The translations under genes were made by a program, and so were the position numbers. Source: a virus. From it: DNA of 64,000 nucleotides. Positions 2,042 to 35,243 of the stretch are shown here, piece by piece (position 1 is the first letter of the stretch; each line of letters begins with the position of its first letter). Where the stretch lies: IMG/VR virus record IMGVR_UViG_3300032213_001988, positions 1 to 64,000 of that record; one strand, 5' to 3'. A model generated the notes under the pieces. It was not told where the DNA came from and did not search any database. It was given only the letters and a program-made list of their open reading frames with translations.

Positions 2042-2074
2042 GTAGCCTCCTATATTACTAGGTTGCTATCGAAA

Positions 2075-3625: not shown

Positions 3626-3635
3626 TTAGAGCTCC

Positions 3636-4721
<1,086 letters not shown>

Positions 4722-5310: not shown

Positions 5311-5397
5311 CATACACGTTTAACCAAAAGGGTGTACACTAGTTTTACGGGTAAAGAATTGTACATTCATGCGGAATTTGATGAATATGGAGAATTT

Positions 5398-12519: not shown

Positions 12520-15500
12520 ATGGCTTATGGTAATGATGTCGTTACTCGTGTTGTAACGGGGACATACCTTACTGGTCGCGGCGTACCTGCTCGTGGAAGA
12601 GTAACCTTTACTCCAACAGCAGTTGTAGTAGATCTAAACAACGCAGTCATAATTCCAGGCGCGATAGTCGCGACGTTAAATACTAGTGGTGCTTTCACAG
12701 TAACTCTTCCAACGACAAACAACCCAAATCTTTCGCCTGCCGGCTGGGCATATGAAGTAAACGTAAGATTATATGGTGTAAAACCACAAAGATTCTTTGT
12801 TTTCATTCCTAGTGGAAATACCGCACTAGATCTCAGCGTAGAGCTAAGCAGTGCGTCTCCTGTAGCAGACACAACAGAACTTCCTCCAATGCCACGTGGA
12901 CCAATTGGCCCTGTCGGTCCTACCGGCCCATCAGGCTCGGGTATTCGTGTTCTTGGTTCATTCGCAACATTAGGAGCTTTGCAAGCAGCATTCCCAACTG
13001 GCTCGACTGGTGACGGATACATAGTTGCTACTAATCTTTATGTGTGGAGTGCAAATACTTCAGCGTGGATTAACGTTGGTCCGTTTCTTGGACCTACAGG
13101 TGCTCAAGGTGTAACAGGCCCAACAGGTTCAACAGGCCCAACAGGCGCCACTGGTCCACAAGGAACAGTAGGACCTACCGGCCCGCAAGGAGTATCTGGC
13201 CCTGCGGGTGCTCAAGGTATTCAAGGAACTGTTGGTGCAACAGGCTCACAAGGTCCAACAGGCGCTACAGGAGCAACTGGTATTGCTGGTCCAACAGGAC
13301 CTACAGGCGCGACAGGCGCAACTGGTGCTGCATCTACAGTTACTGGTCCAACAGGTGCTACCGGTGCAACAGGATCCGCTGGAACTTCAGTAACAATTCT
13401 TGGTTCATATGTAAGCCTTGCCGCACTACAGGCAGCACAACCAACAGGCCTTCCTGGTGATGGGTATTTAGTTCTTGGAAACTTATACGTCTGGTCTGCA
13501 TCATCTGCAGCATTCGTAAATGTTGGACAGATTCAAGGACCAACAGGCCCAATAGGTGGAACAGGTTTAACTGGAGCAACTGGTGCGACCGGAGCTCAAG
13601 GAGTGACAGGACCTACAGGTTCACAAGGTATTCAAGGAGCAACAGGCGCCACAGGTGCACAAGGATCAACTGGTCCAACAGGCGCACAAGGCCCAACAGG
13701 CGCACAAGGTGTTCAAGGTAACGTTGGTGCAACAGGTCCAACAGGTCCGCAAGGACTTGCTGGAATAACAGGTCCAACAGGAATTGCTGGCCCAACAGGT
13801 CCAACAGGTGCGCAGTCAACAGTAACTGGTCCAACAGGTGCGCAAGGCGCAACAGGTCCAACAGGTGCGCAAGGTATTCAAGGTGTAAAGGGTGACCAAG
13901 GAGATCTTGGTCCTACTGGTGCAACAGGTGCGACAGGCGCAACAGGTGCAGCAAGTACAGTAACGGGACCAACAGGAAGTGTAGGACCTACTGGTCCAAC
14001 TGGAGCAACCGGTGCAACAGGATCTGTCGGACCAGCTTCTACAGTCACAGGACCGACAGGCGCTACAGGCGCTACAGGCGCTACAGGCCCACAAGGTATT
14101 CAAGGTGTAAAGGGTGATACTGGTAATGTCGGTGCTACAGGCGCTACAGGCCCACAAGGTTTAATAGGCGCTACAGGTGCGACTGGCTCAACAGGTGCAA
14201 CTGGCCCAGCAGTTACAGGCCCTACTGGTCCTCAAGGTCTAATCGGTGAAACTGGTCCGCAAGGAAGTACTGGTCCAACTGGACCTAACGGTGTAACCGG
14301 TCCAACAGGCGCAACAGGCCCAACCGGTGCTACAGGCGCAGCCTCTACAGTAACTGGTCCAACAGGTGCAACAGGTGCTACAGGCGCAACAGGCGCAACA
14401 GGCGCTACTGGTGCTGCGTCGCAAGTTACCGGCCCAACAGGCGCAACTGGTCCTACAGGTGCACAAGGTGTAATAGGCTCTACCGGTCCGACAGGCGCAG
14501 TTGGTGCAACAGGTGCAACAGGCGCAAGTATCACTGGTCCAACAGGAGCAACCGGTGCGACAGGCTCAACAGGCCCAACAGGCGCACAAGGAACAGCAGT
14601 TCGTATTCTTGGCTCATTCGCAACATTAGGAGCTTTGCAAGCAGCTTATCCTACAGGAGCTGCAGGCGATGGATATCTTGTAGTTGGAAATCTCTATGTA
14701 TGGAATGGAACTGCCTGGGAAAACGTTGGAACTATTCTTGGTCCAACTGGCCCAACAGGTGCAACTGGTCCTCAAGGTACAAACATTAACTTTAAGGGAA
14801 GCGTTGCTAACCTAACTGCACTAAACGCAATTACTGGTCAGGTGCGTAATGACGCATACATCGTAGACTCAGATGGAAATCTTTACGTATGGAGTGGAAG
14901 CGTTTGGGTAGACGCTGGGCAGATCGTTGGACCACAAGGTCCTACAGGCCCAACGGGTCCTACCGGACCAACAGGACCAACTGGAGCGCTTGGAAACTTT
15001 GCACCTACTGGAGCAACACCGCCATCTCCTGCAGTTGCAGGTAACGCCTGGTTTAACTCAGACAGCGGAAAAGTTTATATCTACTATGATAATTTTTGGG
15101 TAGAGGTTGGCGCGGCACCGGTGGGACCTACAGGTCCTCAAGGGCCACAGTCTACAGTTACCGGCCCAACCGGTCCGACTGGTATTCAAGGACCAACGGG
15201 TCCAACAGGCGCGCAAGGTCAACTAGGAACTACAGGAGCAACAGGTCCAACTGGTCCAACTGGCGCACAGTCAACAGTCACAGGACCTACGGGAGCAACA
15301 GGTCCTACCGGCCCAACAGGCGCTACAGGAGCTGCCTCTACTGTCACTGGACCTACAGGTTCACAAGGTATTCAAGGCCCAACCGGCCCAACAGGTCCAG
15401 TCGGACCAGTTGGTGCTGCATCAACAGTTACTGGTCCTACTGGAGCAACAGGCCCAAGTGTAACTGGTCCAACTGGCCCAACGGGTCCTACTGGAGTTCG

Positions 15501-17169
15501 TGGAGCATTCATTCCAAACTCTGCAACACCCCCAGCATCACCGGTAACTGGTGACACGTGGTTTAACACCGACAACGGTGCGGTATTTATCTATTACGAT
15601 TCATATTGGGTTGAAGTAGGAACCTCTGAGTTTGGTGGAGCAACAGGTCCCGCAGGAACACCTGGCGCAACTGGACCAACCGGTCCAACAGGAGCAACGG
15701 GTCCTACAGGTGCTGCTTCAACTACACCTGGTCCAACTGGTCCAACTGGTGCTTCAGTAACAGGCCCAACAGGCCCGCAAGGCCAGGCAATCATTGTTCA
15801 AGGTTCATATCAAGACTACGCTGCGTTTGCTGCAGGAGCTGGTGCAACCCCAGGTACAGTTGGGCATGCCTGGCTAATCGTAGCTGAGGATACACTCTTT
15901 GTTTACTCTGCAACGCAAGGTTGGATTGACGCAGGAGCAACAATTGGACCGACAGGTGCAACGGGTCCAGGATTCTCAAATGTAACTTCGTCCTCGTCTG
16001 TTCTAATCGGATCTGGAAACAAAACATTTACAATCACCGCAGGAAGTGCATTCTCATCTGGCCAACGCGTAAGAGCAATCAACACCGCGAATCTTGCTAA
16101 CTTTGTTGAAGGTGTTGCAACTGTCGCTGGTACAACTATGATTATAGCAACAGATCTTGTTGGTGGCTCTGGCACATATGCAGCATGGAGAATAGTATTA
16201 GTTGGAAATGTTGGAGCTACAGGACCAGCGGGTACTGCAGGAGCAATAGGACCAACTGGTCCTGGTATAACTGGTCCTACAGGACCAGCTTCAACAATTA
16301 CCGGCCCAACAGGCGCAACAGGGCCTCGTGGTCTTGACGGTGGAGTTCGTTATGTCGTAAGAAATACATCAGGTGAGTTTACGTTTGATGGCATTGCTGG
16401 AAATAACCCAAACATCACTGCAATTCGTGGAGAGACAGTGTACTTTGATGTTAGCAACGTAACAGTAGATCGCTCGTTTGCGCTGCGTCTTGCAAGCGCA
16501 AGCACCACCTCAGTTCCTGGAACAACAAACAACAGCCCGGCTGTTGGTCGTGACTCAGCATCGGCAGACACAGTTATCGTGTATCAGGTTCCGTTTAACG
16601 CACCTAATGCGATATTCTATCAGTCACCAGACAGCGCAGGACTATTCGGGCAGATTGACATCATCGCTAAGCAGGGACCAACAGGTCCAACTGGTGCACA
16701 AGGCGCAGCAGGCACTAACGGGGCTGTTGGAGACACAGGTCCAACCGGTCCAACTGGACCAGCCTTCGCGCAGTCAATAACATCGATTAGCTACAACCCA
16801 ACATTTGCTGGAACTGCACCCTATGCACAGGTAGGAACTACCGCTTTTGGTAAGTACACTAAGGCAGGGCAGATGGTGACCTTTGCGATTAGCATAAGTA
16901 TGGCAAACGTAACTAACTTTGGAGCTGGAAACTTTACAGTAACTCTCCCGGTAGCTCCATCAGCAGATACATATATGTTTACAGGATACCTGTATGATAC
17001 GCAAGGAGAGTACATAATTCATGCTTTATCAGAAGGCAGCGCAACAATGACACTTTACATATCTGGAGTAAATGGGCTATTAACTCCGCTGAGCCCTACG
17101 TCTCCAGTTACACTTGATATTTCAAGTGAAATAAATCTAAGCGGATCTTACATAAGTTTAACAGCGTAA
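12520..17169 (+). CDS. Large collagen-like tail fibre (1549 aa)
   Basis: Actinophage-type Ig-like N-terminal domain, very long GPT/GAT tracts broken by recurring globular modules, a degenerate cupredoxin-like domain and a C-terminal beta domain. Confidence 0.85.
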
Positions 17170-17190
17170 TAGAGATAAGGAGACCTAATC

Positions 17191-17868
17191 GTGCCAATTG
17201 ACTTTCCAGCAGGGCCAACAGTAGGTCAGACCTATACTTTTTCAACTCAGACTTATCAGTGGAACGGCACATCTTGGCGACTTGTTCGCACAAGTGCAGT
17301 TGGTCCTACTGGTCCAACTGGTCCCGCATCAACAGTGCCAGGACCAACTGGTCCAACTGGTCCAAGTGTAACTGGTCCAACTGGTGCAGCAAGCACTGTA
17401 ACTGGACCTACAGGACCGACTGGCCCAACAGGTAGCTTTGCAATAGCTGCTTGGAGTACTTACACTCCAACCTGGTACACAACTGGCACAGCAGCCTCAG
17501 TTGGAAATGGAACACTGACAGGCAGATACCAAAGCATTGGAAGAACAATAGTTGGAGAAATTCGTCTTGTGCTTGGTTCAACCTCTGTTCGCGGAACTGG
17601 AACGTATCGTTTTTCTCTTCCAACGCCTGGTATAGCGGAAAACTACCAGCCTATTGGACAAGTTGTTGTTCGCGATGAGGGTCCTGGAAGCACGTTCTTT
17701 GGCACAGTACTTTTCAACGCAGGATTGACAGACCGCATTGAGCTCTGGCTTCACTCACAAAGCGGAACTATCGTTGAGGGAGTTCAAATGACTCACGACA
17801 CTCCAATGTTGATCTCAACTAACGATAAGATTCTTATATACTTCCAATACGAAGCGAATCCAGCTTAG
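17191..17868 (+). CDS. Short collagen-like fibre protein
   Basis: MPIDFP N-terminus, short GPT tract, C-terminal beta domain similar to the C-terminus of the 12520 gene. Confidence 0.75.
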   Translation: MPIDFPAGPTVGQTYTFSTQTYQWNGTSWRLVRTSAVGPTGPTGPASTVPGPTGPTGPSVTGPTGAASTVTGPTGPTGPTGSFAIAAWSTYTPTWYTTGTAASVGNGTLTGRYQSIGRTIVGEIRLVLGSTSVRGTGTYRFSLPTPGIAENYQPIGQVVVRDEGPGSTFFGTVLFNAGLTDRIELWLHSQSGTIVEGVQMTHDTPMLISTNDKILIYFQYEANPA

Positions 17869-17878
17869 GAGATGACAC

Positions 17879-19624
17879 ATGCCAATTGATTTTCCTAACT
17901 CACCAACTTTAAATGATCAATTCACCTCAGGCTCAACAACCTGGAAGTGGGATGGTGCCAAGTGGAACATACTTGTTACACAGTCAAGCGGACCGACAGG
18001 ACCAACAGGTCCACAGGGAAACTTAGGACCAACAGGCTCAACTGGTCCAACTGGCTCGCGTGGAGTTTTTACAACATCATCTGCAACACCACCTTTAAAC
18101 CCATCAATTGGTGACGCGTGGTTTGACTCTGAGAGTGGACAGATCTACATTTACTATGATGGCTATTGGGTTGAGTCCGCTTCTTCAAACGTTGGTAATC
18201 AAGGAGATCTTGGTCCAACAGGTGCGACTGGCCCAATGGGTATTCAAGGATTAACAGGTCCAACTGGCCCAATAGGTCCGCAAGGGCCGCAAGGGACCGT
18301 AGGAGTGACAGGTGCGCAAGGACCAACTGGCTCAACCGGACCAACTGGTCCACAAGGAGTTACTGGCCCACAAGGAGCAACTGGTCCACAAGGACTTCAA
18401 GGCTCTACCGGAGCAACTGGCTCGCAAGGACCGCAAGGAACTCAAGGAACAATTGGTGACCTTGGGCCTACAGGTGCAACAGGACCTACCGGCCCGTTAG
18501 GTCCAACTGGACCACGAGGATTTACTGGTTTTACAGGGCCACAAGGTCTAACAGTTACAGGGCCAACTGGCGCGACAGGCGCGACAGGCGCGTCCGGCCC
18601 AACAGGTCCTTCAGGTGGACCTACCGGTCCTACAGGCTCGACAGGAGCAACGGGAGCAACTGGACCAACAGGTGCTCGTGGAGCAACAGGCGGCTCAGGC
18701 CCAACGGGCCCAACAGGTGCAGCCTCAAACGTTATAGGACCTACAGGACCTACAGGACCTCAAGGCGTAAACATTGTTATGCGAGCAAGTGTCGCAACAG
18801 TCGGAGCTCTTCCTTCAGTCGGAAACACAGTTAACGATGGACGCATAGTTGATGCAGATGGAAATCTTTATATTTGGACAGGCTCAGCCTGGAGTGACGC
18901 TGGGCAGATCGTTGGACCACAAGGTCCTACAGGCCCGCAAGGTGTTACAGGACCTACGGGCCCAACAGGTTCACAAGGTCTAACTGGATTGACTGGCCCA
19001 ACCGGTCCAACTGGCGCAACAGGCGAAGCACTTAGAATTCTTGGCTACTACTCAACATTAGCTGCCTTGCAGGCTGGTGACCCATTTGGTGCCGGTGGCG
19101 AAGGTTACGTAGTTGGCCTAGGACTTCTTTACGTCTGGTCTGTTGCAACTAATCAATGGATAAACGTTGGAAACATTCTTGGACCTACCGGTCCAACGGG
19201 CCCAGCAGTTACAGGCCCAACAGGTGCTGCATCTACAGTTACTGGTCCAACCGGACCAACCGGTCCAACCGGTCCAGCCTCAACAGTAACGGGACCAACT
19301 GGTCCTGCGTTCTTTAACTTAGTTGGAGCAACATACACTGCAAACCGCATTCTTGGTGCAGCAGACGCTGGTTCTCTTGTGAGAATGAACCTTGGAGTCG
19401 CAAACACAGTTACAGTCGCACCAGATCTCACATATAACTTCCCCATTGGAACTCAGATAGTCGTAGTTCAACTTGGCGCGGGGCAAACAACATTTGTTGC
19501 AGGCTCTGGAGTTACGATACGAAGTGAAGGAAACAAGCTTATCACCAAGGCGCAGTACGCAACTGCGTCACTAATCAAGTTAGCCGCAGACACGTGGTTG
19601 CTAGCTGGAAACTTGACGGTGTAA
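17879..19624 (+). CDS. Collagen-like fibre protein
   Basis: MPIDFP N-terminus, GPT/GPQ tracts, C-terminal [16 protein letters not shown]...TWLLAGNL domain. Confidence 0.8.
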
Positions 19625-19625
19625 T

Positions 19626-20531
19626 GTGCTAGTTGCCCAACATGGAGTTTTTTCTACGTATGAGTACCCATTTGTTCCAGTAGAGTGGTCAGCAGTTCCT
19701 ACATCTAGTTTTGGAACAACAAATATCAACTCGCTTGCGTTTGGCAACTCCGTCTATGTGGCAGCTGGAAACTCTGGCAAGATCGGGACCGCGCCTGATG
19801 GCGTTACATGGACCCAAAGAACATCGTCCTTTGGCACAACTCCAATCTATGCTGTTGCGTATCTAAATGGAGTTTTTTACGCTGCAGGAAGCACAGGGAA
19901 GCTTGCAACATCCGTTAACGGGACCTCAACCTGGACGCAGCGCACATCATCATTTGGCTCAAGTGTAATTCTTGGACTTGCCTATTCATCTGCTCTTTCA
20001 GTCTACGTTGCAGTCGGTGGAGATGGTAAGCTCGCCACATCAAGCGACGGTCTAAGTTGGACGCAGCGCACATCATCATTTGGTACTACATTTATTCGTG
20101 GAGTTGTTGCTTTTGGTGGAACTCTCGTAGCAGTTGGAGATGACGGAAAACTTGCAACATCAACTAACGGTTTGGTGTGGACACAAAGAACATCGTCCTT
20201 TGGTTCAACTCGTATCTACGGAGTTACCCTTGCCTCAAGTCGCCTCGTCGCCTTTGGCGCGGCTGGAAAGATAGCATCATCAGCCGATGGAATTAACTGG
20301 GTTCAAGGAAACTCGAGCTTTGGAAGCTCTGACATTCGCTCAGTGGCATATGCATCAAACGGCGTATATGCTTCTGCTGGAGCAGATGGCAAGATAGCAA
20401 CGTCCTTTGACGGCGTCGGTTGGGTAATTCGCCCTTCATCATTTGGAACGTCCACAATAAATGGTATTCACGTAAGTTTAACAAGGTCAATAGCCACTGG
20501 AGACAGCGGAAAGATCTCACTTTCAGTCTAA
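19626..20531 (+). CDS. Beta-propeller protein (WTQRTSSFG repeats, Asp-box/BNR-like)
   Basis: About seven ~40-aa repeats of the form W.QRTSSFG..I..VA....VAVG..GK.ATS.DG. Confidence 0.75.
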   Translation: MLVAQHGVFSTYEYPFVPVEWSAVPTSSFGTTNINSLAFGNSVYVAAGNSGKIGTAPDGVTWTQRTSSFGTTPIYAVAYLNGVFYAAGSTGKLATSVNGTSTWTQRTSSFGSSVILGLAYSSALSVYVAVGGDGKLATSSDGLSWTQRTSSFGTTFIRGVVAFGGTLVAVGDDGKLATSTNGLVWTQRTSSFGSTRIYGVTLASSRLVAFGAAGKIASSADGINWVQGNSSFGSSDIRSVAYASNGVYASAGADGKIATSFDGVGWVIRPSSFGTSTINGIHVSLTRSIATGDSGKISLSV

Positions 20532-20550
20532 GAAAAACAGGAGGTAAGAC

Positions 20551-20718
20551 ATGTATACATACGAGGTAACAAGCAACCCTCCAATGTGCAAGATTCTAAA
20601 GGATGGTCAATTAGTTGACCATAGTGGACCTTGGGAGTCAGAGGAGGCTGCCACATCATGGGCAGTGCTCTTTGTAGAAAAGTGCAACGGCGGATATGAT
20701 CCGTTCTCTGCGGCCTAA
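20551..20718 (+). CDS. 55-aa hypothetical protein, possibly a fibre assembly factor
   Basis: AGGAGG RBS; MYTYEVTSNPPMCKILKDGQLVDHSGPWESEEAATSWAVLFVEKCNGGYDPFSAA*; below the track cut-off. Confidence 0.7.
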   Translation: MYTYEVTSNPPMCKILKDGQLVDHSGPWESEEAATSWAVLFVEKCNGGYDPFSAA

Positions 20719-20779
20719 TCTTGAAGAACTTAAGTTACAATAAACCACGTAAGGACCATCAAATGAACGGAGATAGCGC

Positions 20780-21427
20780 GTGCCAGCTATAGATTTTCCA
20801 AACACGCCTACGCTAAACCAGGTATTTACAGCTGGTGGAAGCACCTGGGTCTGGGACGGAGCCAAGTGGGAAGTCTCCCGCGTTGCGCCAATTGGCCCAA
20901 CAGGTCCTCAAGGTATACAAGGAGCTACTGGTCCAACAGGTCCAACAGGTCCGCAAGGAAACCAAGGATTTACCGGTCCAACCGGAGCAGTATCAACTAC
21001 ACCTGGACCTACAGGACCGACTGGTTCACAAGGTGTAGTTGGCCCAACCGGCCCACAAGGGCCTACAGGCACCCAAGGTGTCACTGGTCCTACAGGTCCT
21101 ACAGGTGCACAGTCTACAGTGACTGGCCCAACTGGACCTACAGGTCCGCGTGGTTTAACAGGACCAACTGGAGCATCTTCAACGGTAACTGGCCCAACAG
21201 GCTCAACTGGCCCGTCAGGCCCAATCGGTAAGTTTACCGCAGGTCCAAATCAGCCAGGAGGCTCACTAACAAATGGAGATGCCTGGTTTAACACAATTAC
21301 AGGTGTTACATACGTTTATTATGAAGGAGTCTTTGTTGCTGCTGCCGGTGGAACAACTGGACCAACAGGCCCAATTGGAAATCCAGGCTCATATTCAATC
21401 ACTACTTCCTGGTGGTTAGGTGCATAA
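20780..21427 (+). CDS. Short collagen-like fibre protein
   Basis: MPAIDFP N-terminus, GPT tract, GDAWFN module. Confidence 0.75.
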
Positions 21428-21496
21428 CATGTATAGAATAATGACATTCAACTTAAGCTTTAATGTAACTCTTTTTAGAACGAGAGGTGTAAACTA

Positions 21497-24379
21497 ATGC
21501 CAGGTTTTATCGGCGGCAGTAGCGCAGGTTCAGGAGGCACCGGCGGAGAGATTTCCTTCCCAAAGGAGTTCATTGATCCGGTAACTAAGCTCCGCGTTTC
21601 CCAACCAGAAACGTTGATTGATACCGACTTCGAGTATGGTCTTCAGCCTACTAAGTGGGAAACCGTTGAGCTTATCAACAACACTCCATCTTTCTTTTCT
21701 AAGGGTGGCGACACAACCATACCTAACATCTCTGCAGTTGTTACAAACGCAGGTACACGCGAGATCACGGTAACAACAACAATTGAGCACGGCCTATCTG
21801 TTGGAATTCCAATCTCTGTAACAGGCACAAAGTCCGTCACCGCAGATGGCACCTATATTATTAACTCAATTCCAAATACAACGTCATTTACCTACCTATG
21901 TAAGGAAAATCAGCCAACCACTGCATCAATCGAGGATCTTTACACATCAATTATTACTGGTGAGTTTTTTCAAGGATCTCAGATTCGTATTGCTGCAACA
22001 GGTGGAATGGTTACAAACGCGTCAGCAACATCTACTATTACTGTAACTACCCCAAGCGCTCACGGCTTTAAGGTTAACACGCCGTTCTACTTCTTAAATC
22101 TAAACTCAACGGTTTCGCAGGTCTTTGACTCATCAAACTCAACAACAAAGTCATTTGACGCTTCAAACTCAGCTACCGCCCAGACCTTTGACGGATCAAA
22201 CACACTTAACTCGACAAACATTGACTTCTCAAACAGCGCGGTTGTTGGTGGAGCTACAAGCTCAATAACAGCAATAGATGCTGCAGCAGATACAATCAGC
22301 GTCTCGCATGGTACTGAAAACTTCCAAGGCAAGCCTATTGGAACACCTCTTTATTACAACGTTACAACTAGCTCAAATTACTTTGCAACAAATCCTCGTG
22401 GAGTTGTGTATCTTAAGACAAACACCACCTTAGGAACAATAAGCTCAACTTTTCAGGTGAGTGCACTCCCTGACGGAGATGTAATTGACATCACCGCAAA
22501 CATGACAGGCACCTTCCAGCTTGCAAATCAGGCTCGCACCTTCGCAGGAAACAACGTTGATCTTGTTACTGAGCAGACGATATCTATCGTGAACGATACA
22601 GCCAAGACATTTAACGGAACAAACACAGGAGGCCTTTACGGAACCTGTACCTCGTTTCCTGGAACCTCAACAGTTAACGTACTTAGCGGCTCTGGTCTTG
22701 CAGATCTTGCCTGGTATGAAGGCAGCATGGTTTTGTATACAACGACAGGAACCGCGCCGGCAGGTTTATCAAACAACACTACCTACTTTGTTACTAACTT
22801 CTTTCAACAAGGAACCTCAACTACATATTCATTCAGTCTAAAACCACTTCCAAATCAGTCACCGATTACCACCATCTCTGGTGGAACAGGCACTCATACC
22901 TTTACAGCAATTGGCGTATCGGTTGATCGAGACGTATTCCATATACAAAATCATGGATACGTGACAAATGACATGGTTAGATACAACTACCCTGCAGGTG
23001 GCAAGTTTGGTGTGGTTTCAATCGACCAGGACAAGGACTTCTACTTTGTCTCTCAGGTATATGACGCTCACAACTTTAATCTAAATCAGATTATTGGAGA
23101 GCTTACACCTTCAACAGACTCTCGCACAGGAACAAACGCAGGAACAGCAATCGCTCCTACCTCAGTTACAGCGATTGGATTTGGCGCAGGCCTTACATAC
23201 GCGGTGACGAGTGGAACTCTTCCTCCAGGTCTTTCTCTCAATGTATCAACAGGCGTTGTTTCTGGTACACCAAATGCTGCCTACAGTACTGCAAACGTTG
23301 TAATTACTGCAACCGACTCCGCAGGCACAACAGGCACACAGACTATTACGTTCCAGTTTAATCCTGCTCCAGAGATATACGCCTTTACTACCGCTACCTT
23401 TTCAACGCCTCTCACTGGTCGTTTCGGCCCTAGCGTTGCACAGATGAGAAGCAGCGTTGGAAGCCCAGCATGGGCCAATACATACTTGAATCAAGGTCGA
23501 GCAACCGGCTATCAGCTGTGGACTGTTCCAGCAACTGCAACATACGAAATTACAGCTGCTGGAGCAAGAGGTCAAATAAGTACAGCTAACAATCAAGGTA
23601 CTCCTTTGGGTGCGGTTGTTCGTGGAAGAGTTAGCTTAACTCAAGGGAGCACACTAGAAATAGTTGTTGGCCAGATGGCAAATAGCGGTGCTTCAGCTCC
23701 CGATTCTAATGCTGCTGGTGGCGGTGGAACATTCGTTTGTATTGGTAGCACAAATACTCCAGTGATGGTTGCCGGTGGCGGCGGTGGAAGTTATGCTGCA
23801 TGGGGTGGACAGCAATATCACAGCGGTCAAACTCGTCGCCGACCTATCTGGTCTGGAAGCTTAGCTCCAGCAAACAGCGGTGACGGAATAAACCCAGCTG
23901 ATGGTCAAGGTGGTCCTGGTTATCACGGCGGCGGCGGTGGTGGTCTTCTTAGCGGAGGTCAGGTGTACTCTGGTCGTTCACTTAGTGAGTCTGCTGGATC
24001 TTCTGACGGTAACCAACATCAATTTACTCAAGGCGCTGGGTTTAGCGGCTCAAATATCTTTGGAACTTTTTATGCAATCGGCGGTAACGCTAGCAGCTCT
24101 ACTAACGTTCTTGGTGGCTTTGGCGGTGGAGGCGGCGGTCACACAGGTAACAACACCGGTGGCGGTGGCGGTGGCTACTCTGGTGGTCCTGGCGGCTACA
24201 CCTCAGGTGGTGGAAACATCAACTCTGGTATTGGTGGAGGCTCATTTATTATTAGTTCAGCAACTAACGTAGGCACAAGCGACGGTCAATATGAAGGTTC
24301 TGGCACATTTAACGGTGTCGGAATTACAAACATTGGGTACCGCGACGGTACCGGCTACGTCACAATTACAAAGCTATAA
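21497..24379 (+). CDS. Large virion adhesin-like protein with putative Ig domain and C-terminal glycine-rich (ALK/LTK-GRD-like) domain
   Basis: KLRVSQPETLIDTDFEYG N-terminus; HG-type beta repeats; VTSGTLPPGLSLNVSTGVVSGTP (putative Ig); GYQLWTVP...GARG...GGGGTFV...VAGGGGG. Confidence 0.7.
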   Translation: MPGFIGGSSAGSGGTGGEISFPKEFIDPVTKLRVSQPETLIDTDFEYGLQPTKWETVELINNTPSFFSKGGDTTIPNISAVVTNAGTREITVTTTIEHGLSVGIPISVTGTKSVTADGTYIINSIPNTTSFTYLCKENQPTTASIEDLYTSIITGEFFQGSQIRIAATGGMVTNASATSTITVTTPSAHGFKVNTPFYFLNLNSTVSQVFDSSNSTTKSFDASNSATAQTFDGSNTLNSTNIDFSNSAVVGGATSSITAIDAAADTISVSHGTENFQGKPIGTPLYYNVTTSSNYFATNPRGVVYLKTNTTLGTISSTFQVSALPDGDVIDITANMTGTFQLANQARTFAGNNVDLVTEQTISIVNDTAKTFNGTNTGGLYGTCTSFPGTSTVNVLSGSGLADLAWYEGSMVLYTTTGTAPAGLSNNTTYFVTNFFQQGTSTTYSFSLKPLPNQSPITTISGGTGTHTFTAIGVSVDRDVFHIQNHGYVTNDMVRYNYPAGGKFGVVSIDQDKDFYFVSQVYDAHNFNLNQIIGELTPSTDSRTGTNAGTAIAPTSVTAIGFGAGLTYAVTSGTLPPGLSLNVSTGVVSGTPNAAYSTANVVITATDSAGTTGTQTITFQFNPAPEIYAFTTATFSTPLTGRFGPSVAQMRSSVGSPAWANTYLNQGRATGYQLWTVPATATYEITAAGARGQISTANNQGTPLGAVVRGRVSLTQGSTLEIVVGQMANSGASAPDSNAAGGGGTFVCIGSTNTPVMVAGGGGGSYAAWGGQQYHSGQTRRRPIWSGSLAPANSGDGINPADGQGGPGYHGGGGGGLLSGGQVYSGRSLSESAGSSDGNQHQFTQGAGFSGSNIFGTFYAIGGNASSSTNVLGGFGGGGGGHTGNNTGGGGGGYSGGPGGYTSGGGNINSGIGGGSFIISSATNVGTSDGQYEGSGTFNGVGITNIGYRDGTGYVTITKL

Positions 24380-24390
24380 GGAGAACATAG

Positions 24391-27300
24391 ATGCCAATTA
24401 ACGTAACATCCGTAGGTGCTGCAGGTACCCACTCCTTCGCTAAGACAAACGTCAACACCGCAGAGGACTACATCTTCTACAAGAACACCGGCGGAGACAC
24501 AATCCCAGCTGCCTACTCTACAGGACGAACCTTTATCTACTCTGCAGGCGCAGGAACTATTACCGGGCTAACAACTGGAGATCTTGTCTATGTAATTGCG
24601 TCAGGAAACGTGCGTCAACTTAAGTTTAGCTTTTCATCTGGTGGTGCAGCGATTAACTTCACAGGCGCAACCGCAGGATCAATTAAGTTCAACACACCAA
24701 CGATCTATGACAACAAGCTTAACATTGACGGCTCGTTCACAAATAACCAGGCGGTAAAGTACTACACCACTGGAACTCCGATGACAGGTCTTGTCAGCGG
24801 AAACACATACTTTTTACGCAACGTTTCAATCTCCTCCTTCGCAGGAGCGCAGGCACTTTACACTCTTACATCAAACACACATACATTTACATCAGGTGGT
24901 GTCACCGGACGCGTAGGCCCAGATCTTGCTACACTACGAGCATCATACACAACTGCAGCAGCGTGGCGCGACACATATCTGCAGCAGGGTAGCTTTCAAG
25001 GATACCAGGACTGGACAGTTCCGGTTTCAGGAATCTACGAGTTTGACGCGCGAGGAGCCTCGGGCTTTGACGGTGCAGGCGCAGGTGGCGTTGGCCGCGG
25101 TGCGATAGTTAAGGGACGCGTATCTCTTACAAAGGGTGAGATCATCACCATCGTGTGCGGTCAGACTGGAGTAGCACCAACCTCTGGAGCTGCAGGTGGC
25201 TCAGGCGGCGGAACATTCGTTGTTCGTAAGGCTGGAAACGTGCCGTTGTTCGTTGCAGGCGGAGGCTCTGCTGAGTCTGGTTCAGGCGCTGGACGTGACG
25301 GAGTCACAACAAACCTTGGAGGAACTTCAACTGCAGGAATTGCTGCCGGTGGTCAGTCAGGATTTGGTGGACGTTCAACTAACGGATACTCAGCAGGCGG
25401 TGCAGGATTTAATGGCGCTGGACAAGATGGTTTTTCTGGCAGCGGAGCCAACGCCGGTATTCAACTAGGTGGAGGAACATACGCAACGGGGCTATTCCAC
25501 AACGCAAACGCTCGTGTTGGTGGCTTTGGTGGCTTTGGTGGAGCAGGACAGTCAGACGGAACTGCATCAGTTCAATCAGGCGGAGCCGGTGGATACTCAG
25601 GCGGCGGTGGAGCTCGTACAACTAATGCCAACCAGTCAGGCGGCGGCGGCGGATCGTTTATTACAGCAGAGGCAAACACCATCTCAACATCAGACGGTCT
25701 ATATAACACATCATCTTCATTTAACGGTGTTGCAATCACAAACCTTGCTGCGTACAACACTGGAAACGGTACAGTTATTATGACACTAGTCTCTTCATTT
25801 ACCGCTGGTAACGAGTTGTACCCAACTGCTCTTGACGCAGAAAACGGCACAAACAAGATTCTAATTGCGTCTGCTGGAAACTCCTACCACGCGCTTACGC
25901 CGATCTCTCTTGACGCGCAAAATGATACTATTCATACTGCTGCAGGACACGGTCTTTCAAACGGACAGGCTGTTACATACTTCTTTAACGGAACTGTGCC
26001 TGCAGGTATAGCAAACAACACTACCTATTACATTAACACTGTAAACAACTATACATATCGAATTAGCACGACGCCTAGCAGCCCATCTTTTACAACAATC
26101 AACCTTACTACTCCGTCATCTCGCTCGACTGCAACATCAGACGTTGTGCGCGGTGTTGTTGTTAACACTGCACTTGACACGCTTACAATTAACAACCACG
26201 GTTTCCAGGTAGATCAGCCTATTCAGTATGATGCTGGCGGTGGAACTCCAATTGCGCCTCTACAGGATCAAACAACCTACTTCGTGCAGGAGGTTATTGA
26301 TGCGAACAACATTCGTCTCAAGATCTCACTGAACGCCTTAACATACATCAACTTTACCGCAGCTGGCACATCGACAACAAACAGCTTTATCTTCGTTACT
26401 GTCAACCTTCTTAACGATGAGTTATACCTGCCTAACCACGGTCTCTCAACCGGACAGGCTGTTAAGTACTCAAACGGCGGCGGAACAACAGTTGGCGGCC
26501 TAACCCACAACTCAACGTATTTTGTTATCAAGAGAGATAACAGCATTATCCGTCTAGCTTCCACTGCTGCAAACGCTGCAGTAGGAACAGCGGTTAACTT
26601 AACCGCAGTGGGAACTGGAACACAGACTCTTACCGTTACCTCACTTGACTTTACAACAGATACTATTACAATTCCGGGACACGGTTTCCTACAGGGTGAG
26701 CTAGTTCAGTATGACTCACAGGGACAGACTGTTATCAACGGTCTTACAACCGCAACTCCTTACTACGTCATCTTTGTTAACGGCGATAACATCAAGCTTG
26801 CCACAACTCCCGAGAATGCTACAGCAGGAACAGCGGTTAATCTCATTGCATCTCCTGCAGGAGTTGGAACTCATAAGATAACGTCTCTTAGCAAGACTCC
26901 TGATGGAACATACGAGATTGCGACCGTACCAAGTGCAACGTCATTTACTGCAATCGCGCGAGGAACAGTTCCTACAATCGTAAAGACCTTTAACCCACGC
27001 TCAACTGTGGATCCTAATCTCGAGACATTTAAGATTCCATCGCACGGTTTCTTAACTGGAACCGCGGTAACGTACTCTCGTGGCGGAGATACTGCAATCT
27101 TAGGACTAACACACAACACCGTCTACTATGTAGTTGCGGTAAACCGTGACTACATAAAGCTTGCAACAAGTGCCTCTGACGCCGAGTCTGGCATCACACT
27201 TAGCGTTTCTGACTTTGGTACAGGTGCGACTCACTCCTTTACAACATCTCAAATTAACGGAAACGTTACTGGTGGCGGAAACGTAACAATTGCCTCAGGC

Positions 27301-30231
27301 TCGGTTCTTGTTAACGGCTCAGGTACCTCGTTCTCTAAGGTTCTTAAGGTAGGAGACCAATTTAGACTGTTCCCACCTAACACCACGATTTCAAAGAACT
27401 TTGCCCCAACGGACGTTAACACAACAAACAACCGCATTACAATTGCGTCACATGGGTTTACCACAGGAGATGCCGTTGTGTTCTCAGCGGGCGGCGGAGT
27501 AGCGCCTAGCCCACTGATTGACCTTTACTATTACTTTGTCCGCGCAGTCTCAGCATCTGAAATCACCCTACACGGGTCACAAGCAGATGCTACCGGTAAC
27601 ACAAGCGTTGTAGCATTCTCAACTCAAGGAACAGCAGGAGCTACGCCGTTTAACCTAACAAAAACAACTCCACTTTCTCCGATCATTCGTAAGATCACCG
27701 CCATTGGGTCTGATACTCAGCTCTCTGTAGATCGTCCTTACTCAGCTGCGTACACCGCACAGTCATATTCGTATCCAACGTTTATCTACGTGCGCCCTCA
27801 AGGGTACGCGCTTCACCGCCCGTTTGACGGCGGAGTTGAGATGTCGACAGGCGCAAACATCTCGCTTGGCGTTATCGTTCGTCAGACACGTAAGTACTTC
27901 CGCTACCAGTCAGGTAAGGGTATTCAGACCTCCTGCGGTATTAACTTCCAGCCATCAATTGATATTGACAGCATGGTGAGAACTACTTCTACAACAGTAA
28001 CAGTAACTACACGTCGTCCTCACGGACTTATCTCAGGTTTGTTCGTTCGCATCTCCCAGGCTGAGGACTCCTTTGGAGTCACCAGCCAGGTATACAACGG
28101 CGATTTCCAGGTAACTGTTCCTGCAGGATCTCTTACAACGTTTACAATTAACCGCGTAGCACAGGTTGGCGCGGAGGCTAGGGCATATGGCTTCCCACAG
28201 TTCTACGTTCGTGAGTGGACCGGTGGAGCTGTTCGTTCAGGTATGTTTGACTTCCAGAACGGTATGTTCTACGAGTTTGATGGACAAAAGATCTACGCAT
28301 GCCGTCGCTCATCAACGCAACAGATGGCTGGAACAATCTCAGCACTTCAAGGCTCAGAGGTTGTATTCGGAACAGGAACAAACTTTACAGGACAAGTTCA
28401 CGTTGGAGACTACATCGTTCTACGTGGACAAAGTTACCGCGTAGCTGAGATTACCTCCGACACTCAGATGTCAATTCGTCCAGAGTACAAGGGTGCTTCT
28501 GGAACTGAGAGGGAGTTTAACCCTGCAACAGTTGTTAACACAACAACGAACTTGTTCTCAATCGTAAGTCATGGCTTCTCTCAAAACTTGCCACTTGTCT
28601 ACAACTCAATTGACGGTGAGCCTATCGGTGGTCTTATCAACGGTAGAGCATACTACTGTGACATCATTGATAACAACTCGTTTAAGCTAATGGCAAACCC
28701 AAATACATCTGGCACAAACGTAGATCTTTCAAGCGTAGGAACAACAACTGTTCACTCGTTTACACCTGCTAAGTCAGGCATCATTGCAACACTTACAGTG
28801 GACGTAAAGGTTCCGCAAGAAGACTGGAACATCGATCCTTGCGATGGAACAGGCATAACTGGATACAATCTAAACCTTGCAAGAATTCAGATGGCGTACA
28901 TCGATTACTCTTGGTACGGTGCTGGTAAGATTCGCTTTGGATTTAAGGATGGCGAAGGTATAGTCAAGTACGTTCATGAGTTTGTTCACAATAACATTCT
29001 TTACGAGTCATACCTGCGCTCTGGTAACCTTCCAGCACGCTATGAGGTTGTCACCTATGACAGCCCGACATATATTCCGTATCTGTTCCACTGGGGTACC
29101 TCTGTCATCATGGACGGCCGATATGACTCCGACCGTGCGTACTTGTTTACTGCAACAGGCCAGACGCTTAACGTCCCTGGAACAACCCGCAAGACATTCG
29201 CGTCTACTGGAATCAATCTTGCAACTGACCTTCTAACAGTTCAGACTCACGGTTTTAACAACGGTGACATCGTGCAGTTCCAGTCAATTGCTGCAACAGG
29301 TGCAAGAGGCGCTAACGCGCAAAACCCTGCAACATCAGTTGTTGGGTCAAACACACTTGCTAACCTAACAAACAATACATCATACAAGATTCTTGTAAAC
29401 TCTGTCAACCTGATACACTTACTTCCAGTTAGTGCAACGATTAGCCTAGGAGCAACTCAGGCTATCACCAGCGCACAAAGCGGCAATACCGTAACGATTA
29501 CAACAGCTAATCCTCACGGAATAACAACTGGTATGCCTGTTGGTTCATACTTTGGTCGCGTGCCTACCGGAGTGTACACAGCTACTAGAGTTAGTGATAC
29601 AGTATTTACCTACCAAGCAACTACCTCAGCTACAGTCGCATCCGCGGCTGACCCTAACATTGCAGTCACCGAGGTTATTAACCTTACCTCACAAGGAAGT
29701 ACACAGTTTACATACTTCCTGTTCCCAGACGGATCTGTAAACAACACATCTGGTCCAAACTATCAACCGCTGCTTTCAATTCGCCTCTCTCCATCAGTGT
29801 CCTCCGGTCTAACCGGCAAGCTTGGTGATCGAGATGTTATCAACCGCATGCAGTTACGTCTACAGGAAATTGGTATCTCATCTACACAGTTGGTTGACGT
29901 TAAGCTACTTCTTAACGCTCGTCTTAACAACCTTAACTTCGTAGGTGTAACAGCACCTTCCCTCTGTCAGATCGTTGAGCACACCGCGGCAGACACCGTC
30001 TCCGGTGGCGTTCAGGTCTACAACTTCCGCGCGTCTGGTGGTTCAGCTGCTGGTGTTGAAGGAACAACAAGTGTTAATATCGACGAGTTGTTTGAACTTT
30101 CAAACTCAATCCTCGGTGGAGACAGCGTTTTCCCTGACGGACCTGATATTTTAACCGTTGCCGTTTCACGTTTAGTAGGCGGTACCACGCTCACATCAGC
30201 TAAGTTATCATGGACTGAAGCACAGGCTTAG
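24391..30231 (+). CDS. Giant virion protein (1946 aa) with glycine-rich domain and many HG beta repeats
   Basis: GYQDWTVP...GASG...GGGGTFV...VAGGG domain; repeated (N/G)HG(F/L)..G..V.Y...G units; Thr-rich. Confidence 0.75.
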   Translation: MPINVTSVGAAGTHSFAKTNVNTAEDYIFYKNTGGDTIPAAYSTGRTFIYSAGAGTITGLTTGDLVYVIASGNVRQLKFSFSSGGAAINFTGATAGSIKFNTPTIYDNKLNIDGSFTNNQAVKYYTTGTPMTGLVSGNTYFLRNVSISSFAGAQALYTLTSNTHTFTSGGVTGRVGPDLATLRASYTTAAAWRDTYLQQGSFQGYQDWTVPVSGIYEFDARGASGFDGAGAGGVGRGAIVKGRVSLTKGEIITIVCGQTGVAPTSGAAGGSGGGTFVVRKAGNVPLFVAGGGSAESGSGAGRDGVTTNLGGTSTAGIAAGGQSGFGGRSTNGYSAGGAGFNGAGQDGFSGSGANAGIQLGGGTYATGLFHNANARVGGFGGFGGAGQSDGTASVQSGGAGGYSGGGGARTTNANQSGGGGGSFITAEANTISTSDGLYNTSSSFNGVAITNLAAYNTGNGTVIMTLVSSFTAGNELYPTALDAENGTNKILIASAGNSYHALTPISLDAQNDTIHTAAGHGLSNGQAVTYFFNGTVPAGIANNTTYYINTVNNYTYRISTTPSSPSFTTINLTTPSSRSTATSDVVRGVVVNTALDTLTINNHGFQVDQPIQYDAGGGTPIAPLQDQTTYFVQEVIDANNIRLKISLNALTYINFTAAGTSTTNSFIFVTVNLLNDELYLPNHGLSTGQAVKYSNGGGTTVGGLTHNSTYFVIKRDNSIIRLASTAANAAVGTAVNLTAVGTGTQTLTVTSLDFTTDTITIPGHGFLQGELVQYDSQGQTVINGLTTATPYYVIFVNGDNIKLATTPENATAGTAVNLIASPAGVGTHKITSLSKTPDGTYEIATVPSATSFTAIARGTVPTIVKTFNPRSTVDPNLETFKIPSHGFLTGTAVTYSRGGDTAILGLTHNTVYYVVAVNRDYIKLATSASDAESGITLSVSDFGTGATHSFTTSQINGNVTGGGNVTIASGSVLVNGSGTSFSKVLKVGDQFRLFPPNTTISKNFAPTDVNTTNNRITIASHGFTTGDAVVFSAGGGVAPSPLIDLYYYFVRAVSASEITLHGSQADATGNTSVVAFSTQGTAGATPFNLTKTTPLSPIIRKITAIGSDTQLSVDRPYSAAYTAQSYSYPTFIYVRPQGYALHRPFDGGVEMSTGANISLGVIVRQTRKYFRYQSGKGIQTSCGINFQPSIDIDSMVRTTSTTVTVTTRRPHGLISGLFVRISQAEDSFGVTSQVYNGDFQVTVPAGSLTTFTINRVAQVGAEARAYGFPQFYVREWTGGAVRSGMFDFQNGMFYEFDGQKIYACRRSSTQQMAGTISALQGSEVVFGTGTNFTGQVHVGDYIVLRGQSYRVAEITSDTQMSIRPEYKGASGTEREFNPATVVNTTTNLFSIVSHGFSQNLPLVYNSIDGEPIGGLINGRAYYCDIIDNNSFKLMANPNTSGTNVDLSSVGTTTVHSFTPAKSGIIATLTVDVKVPQEDWNIDPCDGTGITGYNLNLARIQMAYIDYSWYGAGKIRFGFKDGEGIVKYVHEFVHNNILYESYLRSGNLPARYEVVTYDSPTYIPYLFHWGTSVIMDGRYDSDRAYLFTATGQTLNVPGTTRKTFASTGINLATDLLTVQTHGFNNGDIVQFQSIAATGARGANAQNPATSVVGSNTLANLTNNTSYKILVNSVNLIHLLPVSATISLGATQAITSAQSGNTVTITTANPHGITTGMPVGSYFGRVPTGVYTATRVSDTVFTYQATTSATVASAADPNIAVTEVINLTSQGSTQFTYFLFPDGSVNNTSGPNYQPLLSIRLSPSVSSGLTGKLGDRDVINRMQLRLQEIGISSTQLVDVKLLLNARLNNLNFVGVTAPSLCQIVEHTAADTVSGGVQVYNFRASGGSAAGVEGTTSVNIDELFELSNSILGGDSVFPDGPDILTVAVSRLVGGTTLTSAKLSWTEAQA

Positions 30232-30240
30232 GAGAAAACA

Positions 30241-32950
<2,710 letters not shown>

Positions 32951-32954
<4 letters not shown>

Positions 32955-33190
32955 TAATGGAAACCGTAGGAAACTGGCAGTGGCACGCTGAGGAAAGCGA
33001 AAATGCTCCTCTACTTAACCTAACAATTAGAAGTATCTCAGACAACAAGACGATTCGTATCTCTGACGTCGTTTGGGCAACCGGCCGCGAGGACTTTCTT
33101 GAAGGTGTCTACAACACCGCAGTTGAGACCTTAGATGGAGCAGATCACTGTTGCTATGAAGGAAAGGTCACTTTAGTACCTAATACGTGA
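32951..33190 (+). CDS. Hypothetical protein
   Basis: 79-aa ORF coupled (ATGA overlap) to the upstream gene. Confidence 0.6.
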
Positions 33191-33230
33191 TAAGATAACT
33201 GCGTAGCGACGAACAACAGGGAGAGAAAAA

Positions 33231-34307
33231 ATGAAGGTAGCTATCTACACAATCGCGCTTAATGAACTTCAATTTGTACAGCCTTGGTATGACTCCGCAA
33301 AGGAGGCAGACTACCTTCTAATAGCGGACACAGGTTCAACTGATGGCACAATCGAGGCAGCGCAGAAGCTAGGAATTAACGTAATAAACGTTCTTGTAAA
33401 GCCTTGGCGTTTTGATATGGGCCGCAATGCGTCTCTTGCAGCGTTACCAGCTGATATTGACTACTGCATCGCACTTGACATGGACGAGGTACTTTTACCA
33501 GGTTGGCGTGAAGAGCTTGAAAAAGCGCACGCAGAAGGTTGGACTCGTCCACGCTACGAGTACACATGGTCATGGAACGAAGATGGGACACCTGGTCTGG
33601 TCTACGGCGGAGATAAGATTCATAAGCGTTTTGGATATCGCTGGAAGCATCCCGTTCATGAGGTCTTGATGACATACGGAGATACTCACGAAACACAGGG
33701 CTGGACAGGATTAAAGATTCATCACCACGCAGACAACACTAAGCCACGTAGTCAGTATCTTCCACTGTTAAAGTTTGCAGTTGAGGAAGACCTAAGTGAT
33801 GACCGCAACGCATTTTACTACGCACGCGAGCTATATTTTTACGGACGTAACGAGGAAGCTGCAGTTGAGTTTAAGCGTCACCTTGCACTACCTCGCGCAA
33901 CATGGCCGCCAGAGCGTGCTGCGTCAATGCGCTATCTTTCAAAGATTGAAACTGATAAGACAGAGTACTGGGCAAACCGTGCAGTTGAAGAAGCGCCTGG
34001 TCGCCGCGAGCCACTAGTGGATCTATCAAAGTACTATTACGAAACATCAAATTGGACAAAGTGCCTTGATTACGCGCAGGCTGCACTAGATATTAAGGAG
34101 CGTCCTCTTGAGTATCTTTGTGAAGACGAGGCTTGGGGATACACTCCACATGACATGCTTTCAATAGCAGCATATCATCTAGGAAAGTTTGATCTTGCTG
34201 CAGAGCACGGAAATCTAGCTCTTCAGTTAGCTCCAGCAGGTGAAAAGTCTAGGATTTCTTCAAATCTTTCTTTTTACGTTTCTTCTCTAGACGCTCCTTC
34301 TTCTTAG
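33231..34307 (+). CDS. GT2 (GT-A) glycosyltransferase with TPR-like C-terminus
   Basis: VAIYTIALNE...IADTGSTDGT...RFDMGRN...IALDMDE (DxD)...VHE; helical repeat C-terminus. Confidence 0.88.
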   Translation: MKVAIYTIALNELQFVQPWYDSAKEADYLLIADTGSTDGTIEAAQKLGINVINVLVKPWRFDMGRNASLAALPADIDYCIALDMDEVLLPGWREELEKAHAEGWTRPRYEYTWSWNEDGTPGLVYGGDKIHKRFGYRWKHPVHEVLMTYGDTHETQGWTGLKIHHHADNTKPRSQYLPLLKFAVEEDLSDDRNAFYYARELYFYGRNEEAAVEFKRHLALPRATWPPERAASMRYLSKIETDKTEYWANRAVEEAPGRREPLVDLSKYYYETSNWTKCLDYAQAALDIKERPLEYLCEDEAWGYTPHDMLSIAAYHLGKFDLAAEHGNLALQLAPAGEKSRISSNLSFYVSSLDAPSS

Positions 34308-34788: not shown

Positions 34789-34789
34789 C

Positions 34790-35128: not shown

Positions 35129-35243
35129 GTATACATTGTATCTTGAGTCTCGCTCGTTTGCGCAGGAAACACCGGTATTTTTTAGACGTGAAGATATATG
35201 GACCCAGGCGTGAAAGTGTCTCTAATGACGACTGAGCGCCCTG

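Follow-up and report, generated by a model that had tools for sequence, protein, structure and literature searches.

An SgtA-like glycosyltransferase at the end of a phage collagen-fiber cassette is a candidate threonine O-glycosyltransferase

We have analyzed the first 64 kb (hereafter the window) of IMG/VR virus record IMGVR_UViG_3300032213_001988, a complete phage genome of 131,518 bp with direct terminal repeats of 123 bp. Our subject is the last gene of a fiber module at 12520–34307, a glycosyltransferase (GT) gene on the plus strand (33231–34307). It encodes a soluble protein of 358 amino acids (aa) in which a family 2 glycosyltransferase domain of GT-A fold is followed by tetratricopeptide repeats (TPRs), an architecture abbreviated below as GT2-TPR. 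By analogy with its homolog SgtA of Clostridioides difficile, the phage GT most likely O-glycosylates threonine residues of the phage's own collagen-like fibers, a reading to which we assign a probability of about 0.55. It is favored because of the homology with SgtA, the identical acceptor motif and the position of the gene among those of the virion. The broader proposal, that the enzyme glycosylates some virion protein, whichever that might be, can be put forward with good confidence.

SgtA has 358 aa, forming a GT-A domain and four TPRs. The recombinant enzyme transfers beta-O-linked N-acetylglucosamine (GlcNAc) from UDP-GlcNAc onto Thr of collagen-repeat peptides of BclA3, with Mn2+ as the preferred metal ion (PMC7157674). 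We located sgtA in C. difficile genomes by means of the forward primer printed in that paper; the open reading frame (ORF) lies at L095:2037-3113:- and is adjoined by bclA3. BLASTP aligns the phage GT with SgtA at 26% identity over 348 of 358 residues (E = 2e-25, 92 bits). Comparison of a 75-sequence profile of the phage GT family with SgtA using hhalign gives a probability of 99.9% (E = 1.3e-31 over 341 columns), and the DTGSTD and LD-x-D motifs of the phage enzyme align with those of SgtA. Judged by these alignments, the phage GT is a full-length homolog of SgtA, and the analogy is one of real homology.

For Glycos_transf_2 the GT ORF exceeds the Pfam cut-off (31.5 bits, cut-off 23.3), for TPR_2 it falls short (21.9 bits, cut-off 27), and it matches PHROG 13126 over its full length (E = 1e-111). 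The AlphaFold2 model has a predicted local distance difference test score of 97.2 and a predicted template modeling score of 0.91. It comprises a GT-A domain (residues 1–170) and a helical-repeat domain (residues 176–354), the latter aligning with consensus TPR proteins with Z of about 17. Eight residues are invariant across 75 aligned homologs. These are D33, G35, S36 and D38 of the nucleotide-binding site, D83 and D85 of the DxD motif, and D62 and E144. The catalytic site is therefore kept, and the enzyme looks active. Since the GT-A half carries the DxD motif, it is probably metal dependent.

Comparison of the model with known structures points in the same direction. In a Foldseek search of the PDB the top matches were SunS and ThuS (E = 1e-17 to 1e-14), followed at about 1e-7 by TarP, the TPR domain of OGT, and GmaR. 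Using VIA-align, SunS and ThuS gave Z values of 21.6–22.6 over 258–311 residues, compared with 17.9 for the best match confined to the GT-A domain. Because SunS and ThuS lead both rankings, the nearest solved two-domain relatives of the modeled enzyme are ones that glycosylate polypeptides. The only sequence match to the GT domain within the PDB is GmaR (E = 8.7e-5). The enzyme family is large, with 860 cluster representatives at E ≤ 1e-30; a word-index search placed 6,438 of 8,000 scored candidates at E ≤ 1e-5. One representative (P0259) had no relative in IMG/VR. The TPR part of one homolog had a sub-threshold Pfam match to the peptide-binding domain of prolyl-4-hydroxylase, but at 24.7 bits (cut-off 27) this was too weak and was not used.

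The putative acceptors are abundant. The earlier note on this DNA, made from the sequence alone, had listed eight Thr-rich collagen genes, six in the module and two at 1–4721, and all eight ORFs are indeed present. We counted triplets in runs of at least five Gly-X-Y. Seven ORFs have at least 24 triplets each, and the eighth (17191–17868) has short runs only. The seven longest together contain 579 triplets, in which Thr occupies 59% of the Y positions, while Pro takes 43% and Ala 30% of the X positions. The commonest triplets are GPT (169) and GAT (117), there are about 340 Thr sites of the form Gly-X-Thr, and the longest runs extend to 31–40 triplets. The fragment of BclA3 has Thr in 71% of Y positions, and its top triplets are GAT (47) and GPT (41). 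Pfam Collagen (PF01391) scores above its cut-off in five of the eight ORFs; 30241–31287 falls below it and 17191–17868 has no match. A collagen search of the whole genome gave 33 matches, all except one within the first 33 kb. The tracts are interrupted 31 times by a nine-residue motif resembling ASTVTGPTG (in 12520–32954 and 2–4721). They also contain small repeated modules, GDAWFN...YIYYDG.WVE six times and ...LYVW... eight times, that may be registration or folding knots.

The fiber proteins have differing non-collagen heads, together with N-terminal motifs of tail fibers, as found in receptor-binding fibers. The earlier note had envisaged a filament coat like the nap of a spore. That idea is unsupported, because with such heads and motifs the proteins look like receptor-binding fibers.

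The GT and the collagen genes are found together in related phages. In a set of 80 IMG/VR loci anchored on the GT (62–100% identical to that of the window), a same-strand collagen gene lies upstream of the GT in 33 of the 41 loci having at least 5 kb of upstream sequence, and 30 of these 33 genes have Thr in at least 40% of their Y positions. Collagen is found downstream in a single locus among the 58 with at least 5 kb on that side. Five of six relatives that seemed to lack upstream collagen were searched over the whole contig. In two of them many collagen genes lie further upstream, and one gave only weak matches; the remaining two gave no collagen match, on contigs that stop about 8–9 kb upstream of the GT. 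None of the five is a counter-example to the pairing of collagen with GT. Anchoring on the WhiB gene that converges with the GT gave a GT2-TPR gene in 64 of 69 loci, with the GT cut by the end of the contig in two more. Two types of enzyme occur at this locus, one 59–100% identical to that of the window and the other full length but only 30–36% identical, and the WhiB proteins that flank them are 73–100% identical to that of the window (L115–L194). The presence of two types at one locus may reflect replacement or diversifying selection.

One relative, G011 (L189:9983-20484, IMGVR_UViG_3300027708_000033; 127 kb, 76% complete), has neither the GT nor any collagen match because the whole 22-kb cassette is absent. 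Its WhiB gene abuts a 193-aa protein, methyltransferase-like as judged by eye, and the phosphoesterase found ahead of the cassette in the window. A non-collagen fiber protein of 941 aa, rich in Thr, Ser and Gly, is encoded in the same vicinity, as is a 265-aa GT-like protein.

Members of the family also occur in more distant phages. Among cultured phages they are found in PaBG, Lu11, HRDY3, jumbo phages of Erwinia, Dickeya and Yersinia, and a few others, with 23–32% identity. We examined five mostly jumbo phages of Proteobacteria (PaBG, Lu11, Alexandra, Afa-NA1 and NCTB; L082–L091), where the GT homolog is 25–32% identical and each genome has at least four collagen ORFs. Four length-matched collagen genes recur in these genomes, with tracts of 23, 24–25, 29 and 34 triplets in most, and the tracts have a Cys at their middle and a cluster of Gly-X-Thr near the C-terminal end. 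A further lineage of large phages (contigs of 55–329 kb) has the GT, and both contigs checked carry several collagen genes. As controls we used 10 large phages of other lineages (123–498 kb), hand-picked and absent from the list of GT matches. A single collagen match (E ≤ 1e-6) was found in two of these, and several in none. Four of the five GT-carrying lineages examined have several collagen genes, compared with none of the 10 hand-picked controls.

A number of observations weigh against collagen as the acceptor, in addition to the hand-picking of the controls. SgtA has only 26% identity with the phage enzyme, which may therefore use another acceptor and another donor. Y is usually Thr in bacterial collagens, and in those of Gram-positive bacteria 48% of the Y positions are Thr (PMC8968730). 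Given that baseline, to which the 59% of the phage is close, Thr-rich Y positions are not evidence by themselves. The collagens of the five jumbo-type phages have Thr in only 14–24% of Y positions, mostly clustered toward the C-terminal end of the tract. The GT gene of those phages lies between genes for an NAD-dependent DNA ligase and a head maturation protease (or their neighbors), far from the collagens. G012, a 90%-complete relative of 121 kb, retains two large collagen genes with no more than a 194-aa TPR-only ORF, so the catalytic domain is not required for having collagen fibers. Three contigs of small phages have a member of the GT family and no collagen match: G008 (36 kb, 86% complete), G009 (42 kb, 100% complete) and G010 (a 16-kb fragment). 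The enzyme of G008 is 37% identical to that of the window (E = 8e-62), which is closer than SgtA. These carriers indicate that the family has non-collagen acceptors as well. Lastly, synteny within a single phage lineage may reflect shared ancestry alone.

In the small collagen-free phages the GT gene lies between a tail protein gene and genes for tape-measure-like or virion structural proteins. What is constant across the lineages is the place of the gene among virion structural genes, and collagen is its commonest companion, not the sole one. The earlier note had proposed the GT as a candidate Thr O-glycosyltransferase on the model of SgtA and BclA3. The full-length homology, the same triplets and the co-inheritance speak for that proposal; the collagen-free homologs, G012 and the Thr baseline temper it. 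The co-occurrence of GT2-TPR genes with collagens, which the note had put forward as a check, holds at 33 of the 41 loci with enough upstream sequence and in four of the five lineages. It breaks down in G008, G009 and G010, and the Thr content of the jumbo-phage collagens is low.

The most probable other target is a virion protein outside the collagen tracts, such as the two giant Ser/Thr/Gly-rich proteins encoded at 21497–30231, the non-collagen parts of the fibers, or components of capsid or tail like those modified in glycosylated mycobacteriophages. We consider this rather unlikely, although several findings agree with it. Homologs as much as 37% identical stand among tail and virion structural genes of phages that have no collagen, and the jumbo-phage homolog sits between the DNA ligase and the protease rather than by the collagens. 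The 960-aa and 1946-aa proteins of the cassette comprise 13–14% Thr and 9–11% Ser, and loss of the entire cassette in G011 is compatible with any acceptor encoded inside it. Set against these, SgtA is the sole close homolog to have been characterized and acts on Gly-X-Thr collagen peptides, which the fibers of the window offer in their hundreds, and several collagen genes accompany the GT in most lineages and in none of the controls. It is less probable still that the enzyme alters a glycan of the host envelope (a cell-wall polysaccharide, a teichoic-acid-like polymer or a lipoglycan), thereby blocking superinfection or changing a receptor. Such a role might be read from the source annotations ('glycosyltransferase involved in cell wall biosynthesis', 'beta-1,4-glycosyltransferase'), and papers on freshwater actinophages propose that their GTs act on the envelope or protect DNA (PMC10202952). 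Yet the cell-wall names are automatic. The GT-A domain alone resembles the wall-teichoic-acid enzymes TarP, TarS and RmlT (Z of about 15), and in the phage GT the C-terminal half is TPR-like instead; no membrane segment or wall-polymer-binding domain is seen in the AlphaFold2 model, and the two-domain matches are peptide or protein glycosyltransferases. Moreover, the gene closes a late structural cassette, and the two have disappeared together in G011. It is not beside the recombinase gene (5332–6060), where a gene of lysogenic conversion might be expected.

Two further roles carry very little weight. The GT might add a further sugar to hydroxymethylcytosine in the phage DNA; hypermodification of DNA with several sugars is known in phages, on the evidence of work cited within PMC12619734. 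This is very unlikely because two ORFs of the replication module (38785–41006) are the obvious candidates for DNA transferases and fit that role. The GT2-TPR gene is in the fiber module, the TPR half of its product is predicted to bind protein, and it is homologous to a protein glycosyltransferase whose gene in C. difficile adjoins bclA3. As for resemblance to the DNA glucosyltransferases of T4 type, the GT model has the GT-A and not the GT-B fold. Scarcely credible is a system of glycocin type, in which the enzyme would glycosylate a small secreted peptide, perhaps the product of a 79-aa ORF that has a Cys-Cys pair and lies 41 bp upstream of the GT. It is true that the closest solved folds, SunS and ThuS, S-glycosylate small bacteriocin peptides, but phmmer found no match between these sequences and the phage GT at E ≤ 1, compared with 92 bits for SgtA. 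In relatives the distance between collagen and GT genes varies between about 120 bases and several thousand, which means that the 79-aa ORF is not conserved and is probably often absent. No transporter or thiol-disulfide oxidoreductase genes of a glycocin cluster lie nearby; the neighbors of the GT are fiber genes and WhiB.

If the phage GT glycosylates the collagen fibers, a plausible mechanism can be outlined. The enzyme would act in the cytoplasm as a soluble protein O-glycosyltransferase of SgtA type and be produced late in infection alongside the products of the fiber genes. The helical TPR half might hold unfolded or partly folded fiber chains, while the GT-A half would take its sugar from a UDP-sugar of the host and attach it to the hydroxyl group of the Y-position Thr in Gly-X-Thr triplets, and perhaps to that of Ser as well. 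By analogy with SgtA, the donor could be UDP-GlcNAc. Transfer would precede winding of the triple helix and assembly of the virion, and the outcome would be sugar-coated collagen stalks on receptor-binding fibers. The first sugar could then be extended or tailored by other sugar and methyl transferases of the genome, and in sister phages by sulfotransferases and further GTs.

There are a number of candidate genes for such tailoring. Members of the GT family often have a methyltransferase domain (in some cases of the rhamnosyl O-methyltransferase type) or a further GT2 domain fused to them. The GT locus of a sister phage holds a larger cluster (L152:10505-19932, IMGVR_UViG_3300042569_001733). 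The order there is a collagen gene, two unknown genes, a sulfotransferase, an adenosine 5'-phosphosulfate (APS) kinase, an unknown gene, an Anp1-like GT, the GT2-TPR gene (product 35% identical to that of the window), a second Anp1-like GT and WhiB. This cluster suggests sulfated glycans containing several sugars. A halogenase gene adjoins the GT in DSL-LC01, the closest named relative of the phage. In the genome studied here a second group of sugar-related genes lies outside the window at 125000–129700 (L195:3006-7672), a few kilobases from the minus-strand collagens across the genome junction. It comprises genes for a 283-aa GT-like protein, an S-adenosylmethionine-dependent methyltransferase, a cupin of mannose-6-phosphate isomerase type, and a 320-aa homolog of a DSL-LC01 protein annotated as beta-mannosyltransferase. 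The same region encodes an S-adenosylmethionine (AdoMet) decarboxylase and an HNH endonuclease.

The tailoring genes would fit a first sugar that is extended and decorated. The two types of GT2-TPR enzyme, with about 35% mutual identity, occupy the same locus and thus give a hint of glycan diversification. We tentatively propose, as a possibility rather than an expectation, that many aquatic phages carry a 'glyco-collagen' cassette. An SgtA-like initiator would act with a variable set of enzymes (extra GTs, methyltransferases, the sulfotransferase with its APS kinase, and the halogenase of DSL-LC01) to build a hypervariable glycan coat on the fibers. If so, the coat would tune host range, stability, and escape from recognition by hosts or grazers, and would be a phage counterpart of O-antigen diversification.

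The phage itself probably infects lake actinobacteria. DSL-LC01 is a metagenome-assembled Actinomycetia phage from Dishui Lake. To judge from its annotated genes, which include WhiB genes and those for a major tail protein, tail assembly chaperones and a tape measure, DSL-LC01 seems to be a siphovirus with an actinobacterial host. Its description does not mention collagen (PMC10611076). The window shares with it the order collagen genes, giant glycine-rich proteins, collagen genes, and a GT converging on WhiB.

Within the module all the genes are on the plus strand, beginning with a 1549-aa collagen-like fiber (12520–17169) that matches PHROG tail and tail-fiber families. It has 21 collagen runs with small globular modules between them, comprising 222 triplets with Thr in 58% of Y positions (Pfam Collagen, E = 6e-68). 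The second collagen-like ORF encodes 225 aa (17191–17868) with short, interrupted GPT runs and matches the PHROG tail collar and collagen-like minor tail families. The third encodes a 581-aa fiber (17879–19624; 80 triplets, 56% Thr at Y, E = 2e-32). A 301-aa repeat protein follows (19626–20531; Pfam DUF6242, E = 2e-12) and then the fourth collagen-like ORF, encoding 215 aa (20780–21427; 39 triplets, 54% Thr at Y, E = 1e-12). The center of the module is occupied by the two large structural proteins. That of 960 aa (21497–24379; Thr 14%, Ser 11%) has Ig-like and glycine-rich domains, with matches to Pfam He_PIG (E = 1.5e-10), to ALK_LTK_GRD below the cut-off, and to a PHROG virion structural protein. 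The translated product of 1946 aa (24391–30231; Thr 13%, Ser 9%) has only sub-threshold Pfam matches. The fifth collagen-like ORF encodes 348 aa (30241–31287; 24 triplets, 50% Thr at Y) and matches PHROG tail and tail-fiber families.

The sixth, the last collagen gene before the GT, encodes 555 aa (31287–32954; 47 triplets, 72% Thr at Y, E = 2e-13). Its non-collagen head, the C-terminal 110 aa or so, matches the PHROG family 'baseplate wedge tail fiber connector' and ends in C-x2-H-x2-M (CSIHAGM), which resembles the copper site of cupredoxins. The gene ends 277 bp 5' of the GT on the same strand, with the 79-aa ORF (32951–33190, plus strand) and its adjacent Cys pair in between. At its 3' end the GT gene overlaps the converging WhiB gene (34249–34788) by 59 bp. 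The earlier note had described a plus-strand operon ending in the GT. An intact GT2-TPR gene is certainly the last of the module, but a scan of 16000–35500 for consensus promoters and terminators gave numbers at chance level (18 compared with 18.4 expected, and 19 compared with 16.6), and the operon status therefore rests on gene packing.

The other two collagen-like ORFs are on the minus strand. The first (2–2041) encodes the N-terminal 680 aa of a fiber with 98 triplets and 58% Thr at Y (Pfam Collagen, E = 2e-34). The gene crosses the circular junction, and reading across the 123-bp repeat gives a whole protein of 921 aa, whose C-terminal part lacks collagen, is rich in short repeats and is possibly a beta-helix. 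The second (3636–4721) encodes 361 aa with 60 triplets and 68% Thr at Y (E = 2e-26). Between them, on the same strand, lies the gene for a 516-aa fiber protein without collagen (2075–3625); its translation has no Pfam match, and its N-terminus is similar to that of the neighboring collagen fiber. The two tandem ORFs at 38785–41006 match the 'glycosyltransferase' gene of DSL-LC01 and its neighbor at 30–33% identity and have no Pfam match. NCBIfam gave no match for these two ORFs, for the 79-aa ORF or for the GT.

If the collagen fibers are indeed the acceptor, then bacterial viruses make glycosylated collagen using a homolog of a spore enzyme, and virion glycosylation would reach well past the few mycobacteriophages for which it is established. 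It would also provide a sugar-based route to stable triple helices that does not involve hydroxyproline. Members of this family are usually annotated as cell-wall or lipo-oligosaccharide GTs, or are taken for genes of DNA protection or superinfection. A correct assignment would therefore change the reading of phage 'auxiliary metabolic' glycosyltransferases. PaBG, Lu11 and the Erwinia and Dickeya jumbo phages are cultured models suitable for direct study. The SgtA–BclA3 system and the glycosylation of mycobacteriophage virions are already known; in the literature we found no description of a phage SgtA homolog paired with collagen fibers, or of glycosylated phage collagen fibers.

A number of known systems can be compared with that of the window. 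GmaR of Listeria monocytogenes, the O-GlcNAc transferase of flagellin, which O-glycosylates a filament protein, shares the GT2 and TPR architecture (PDB 7X9R, 22AO; Foldseek E = 7.6e-7). However, its similarity is far weaker than that of SgtA. It is longer, it regulates transcription as the anti-repressor of MogR, and its substrate is flagellin and not collagen. SunS and ThuS (PDB 7MSN, 7MSP, 7MSK) combine GT-A and TPR domains, glycosylate polypeptides and provide the best solved two-domain match, but they S-glycosylate Cys of small bacteriocins.

Two viral systems are also comparable. Virions of some mycobacteriophages carry glycans on C-terminal extensions of capsid and tail-tube subunits (Freeman et al. 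2023, as cited in PMC12619734). In both cases GTs encoded by actinobacteriophages would decorate structural proteins of the virion, though neither collagen fibers nor an SgtA-like GT2-TPR enzyme features in that description, and the mycobacteriophage Myrna has no collagen match. The L230 protein of Mimivirus, a lysyl hydroxylase and glucosyltransferase, modifies collagen (Luther et al. 2011, as cited in PMC8968730). There too a virus puts sugar on its own collagen-like proteins, but by way of hydroxylysine and with an enzyme of a different family; there is no hydroxylase in the window.

The closest parallel is that of SgtA (CD3350) and its exosporium substrate BclA3. Transfer of beta-O-GlcNAc to Thr by SgtA, an enzyme of bacterial spores, is proven, whereas the function of the phage enzyme is predicted. 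sgtA lies directly upstream of a single collagen gene, while the phage gene is the 3'-terminal one of a 22-kb cassette containing six, and the family of the phage GT extends to phages without collagen. Nevertheless both enzymes are 358 aa in length, with the GT-A domain preceding the TPRs, and are homologous from end to end, and the gene for each stands beside collagen-like genes in which GAT and GPT are the dominant triplets.

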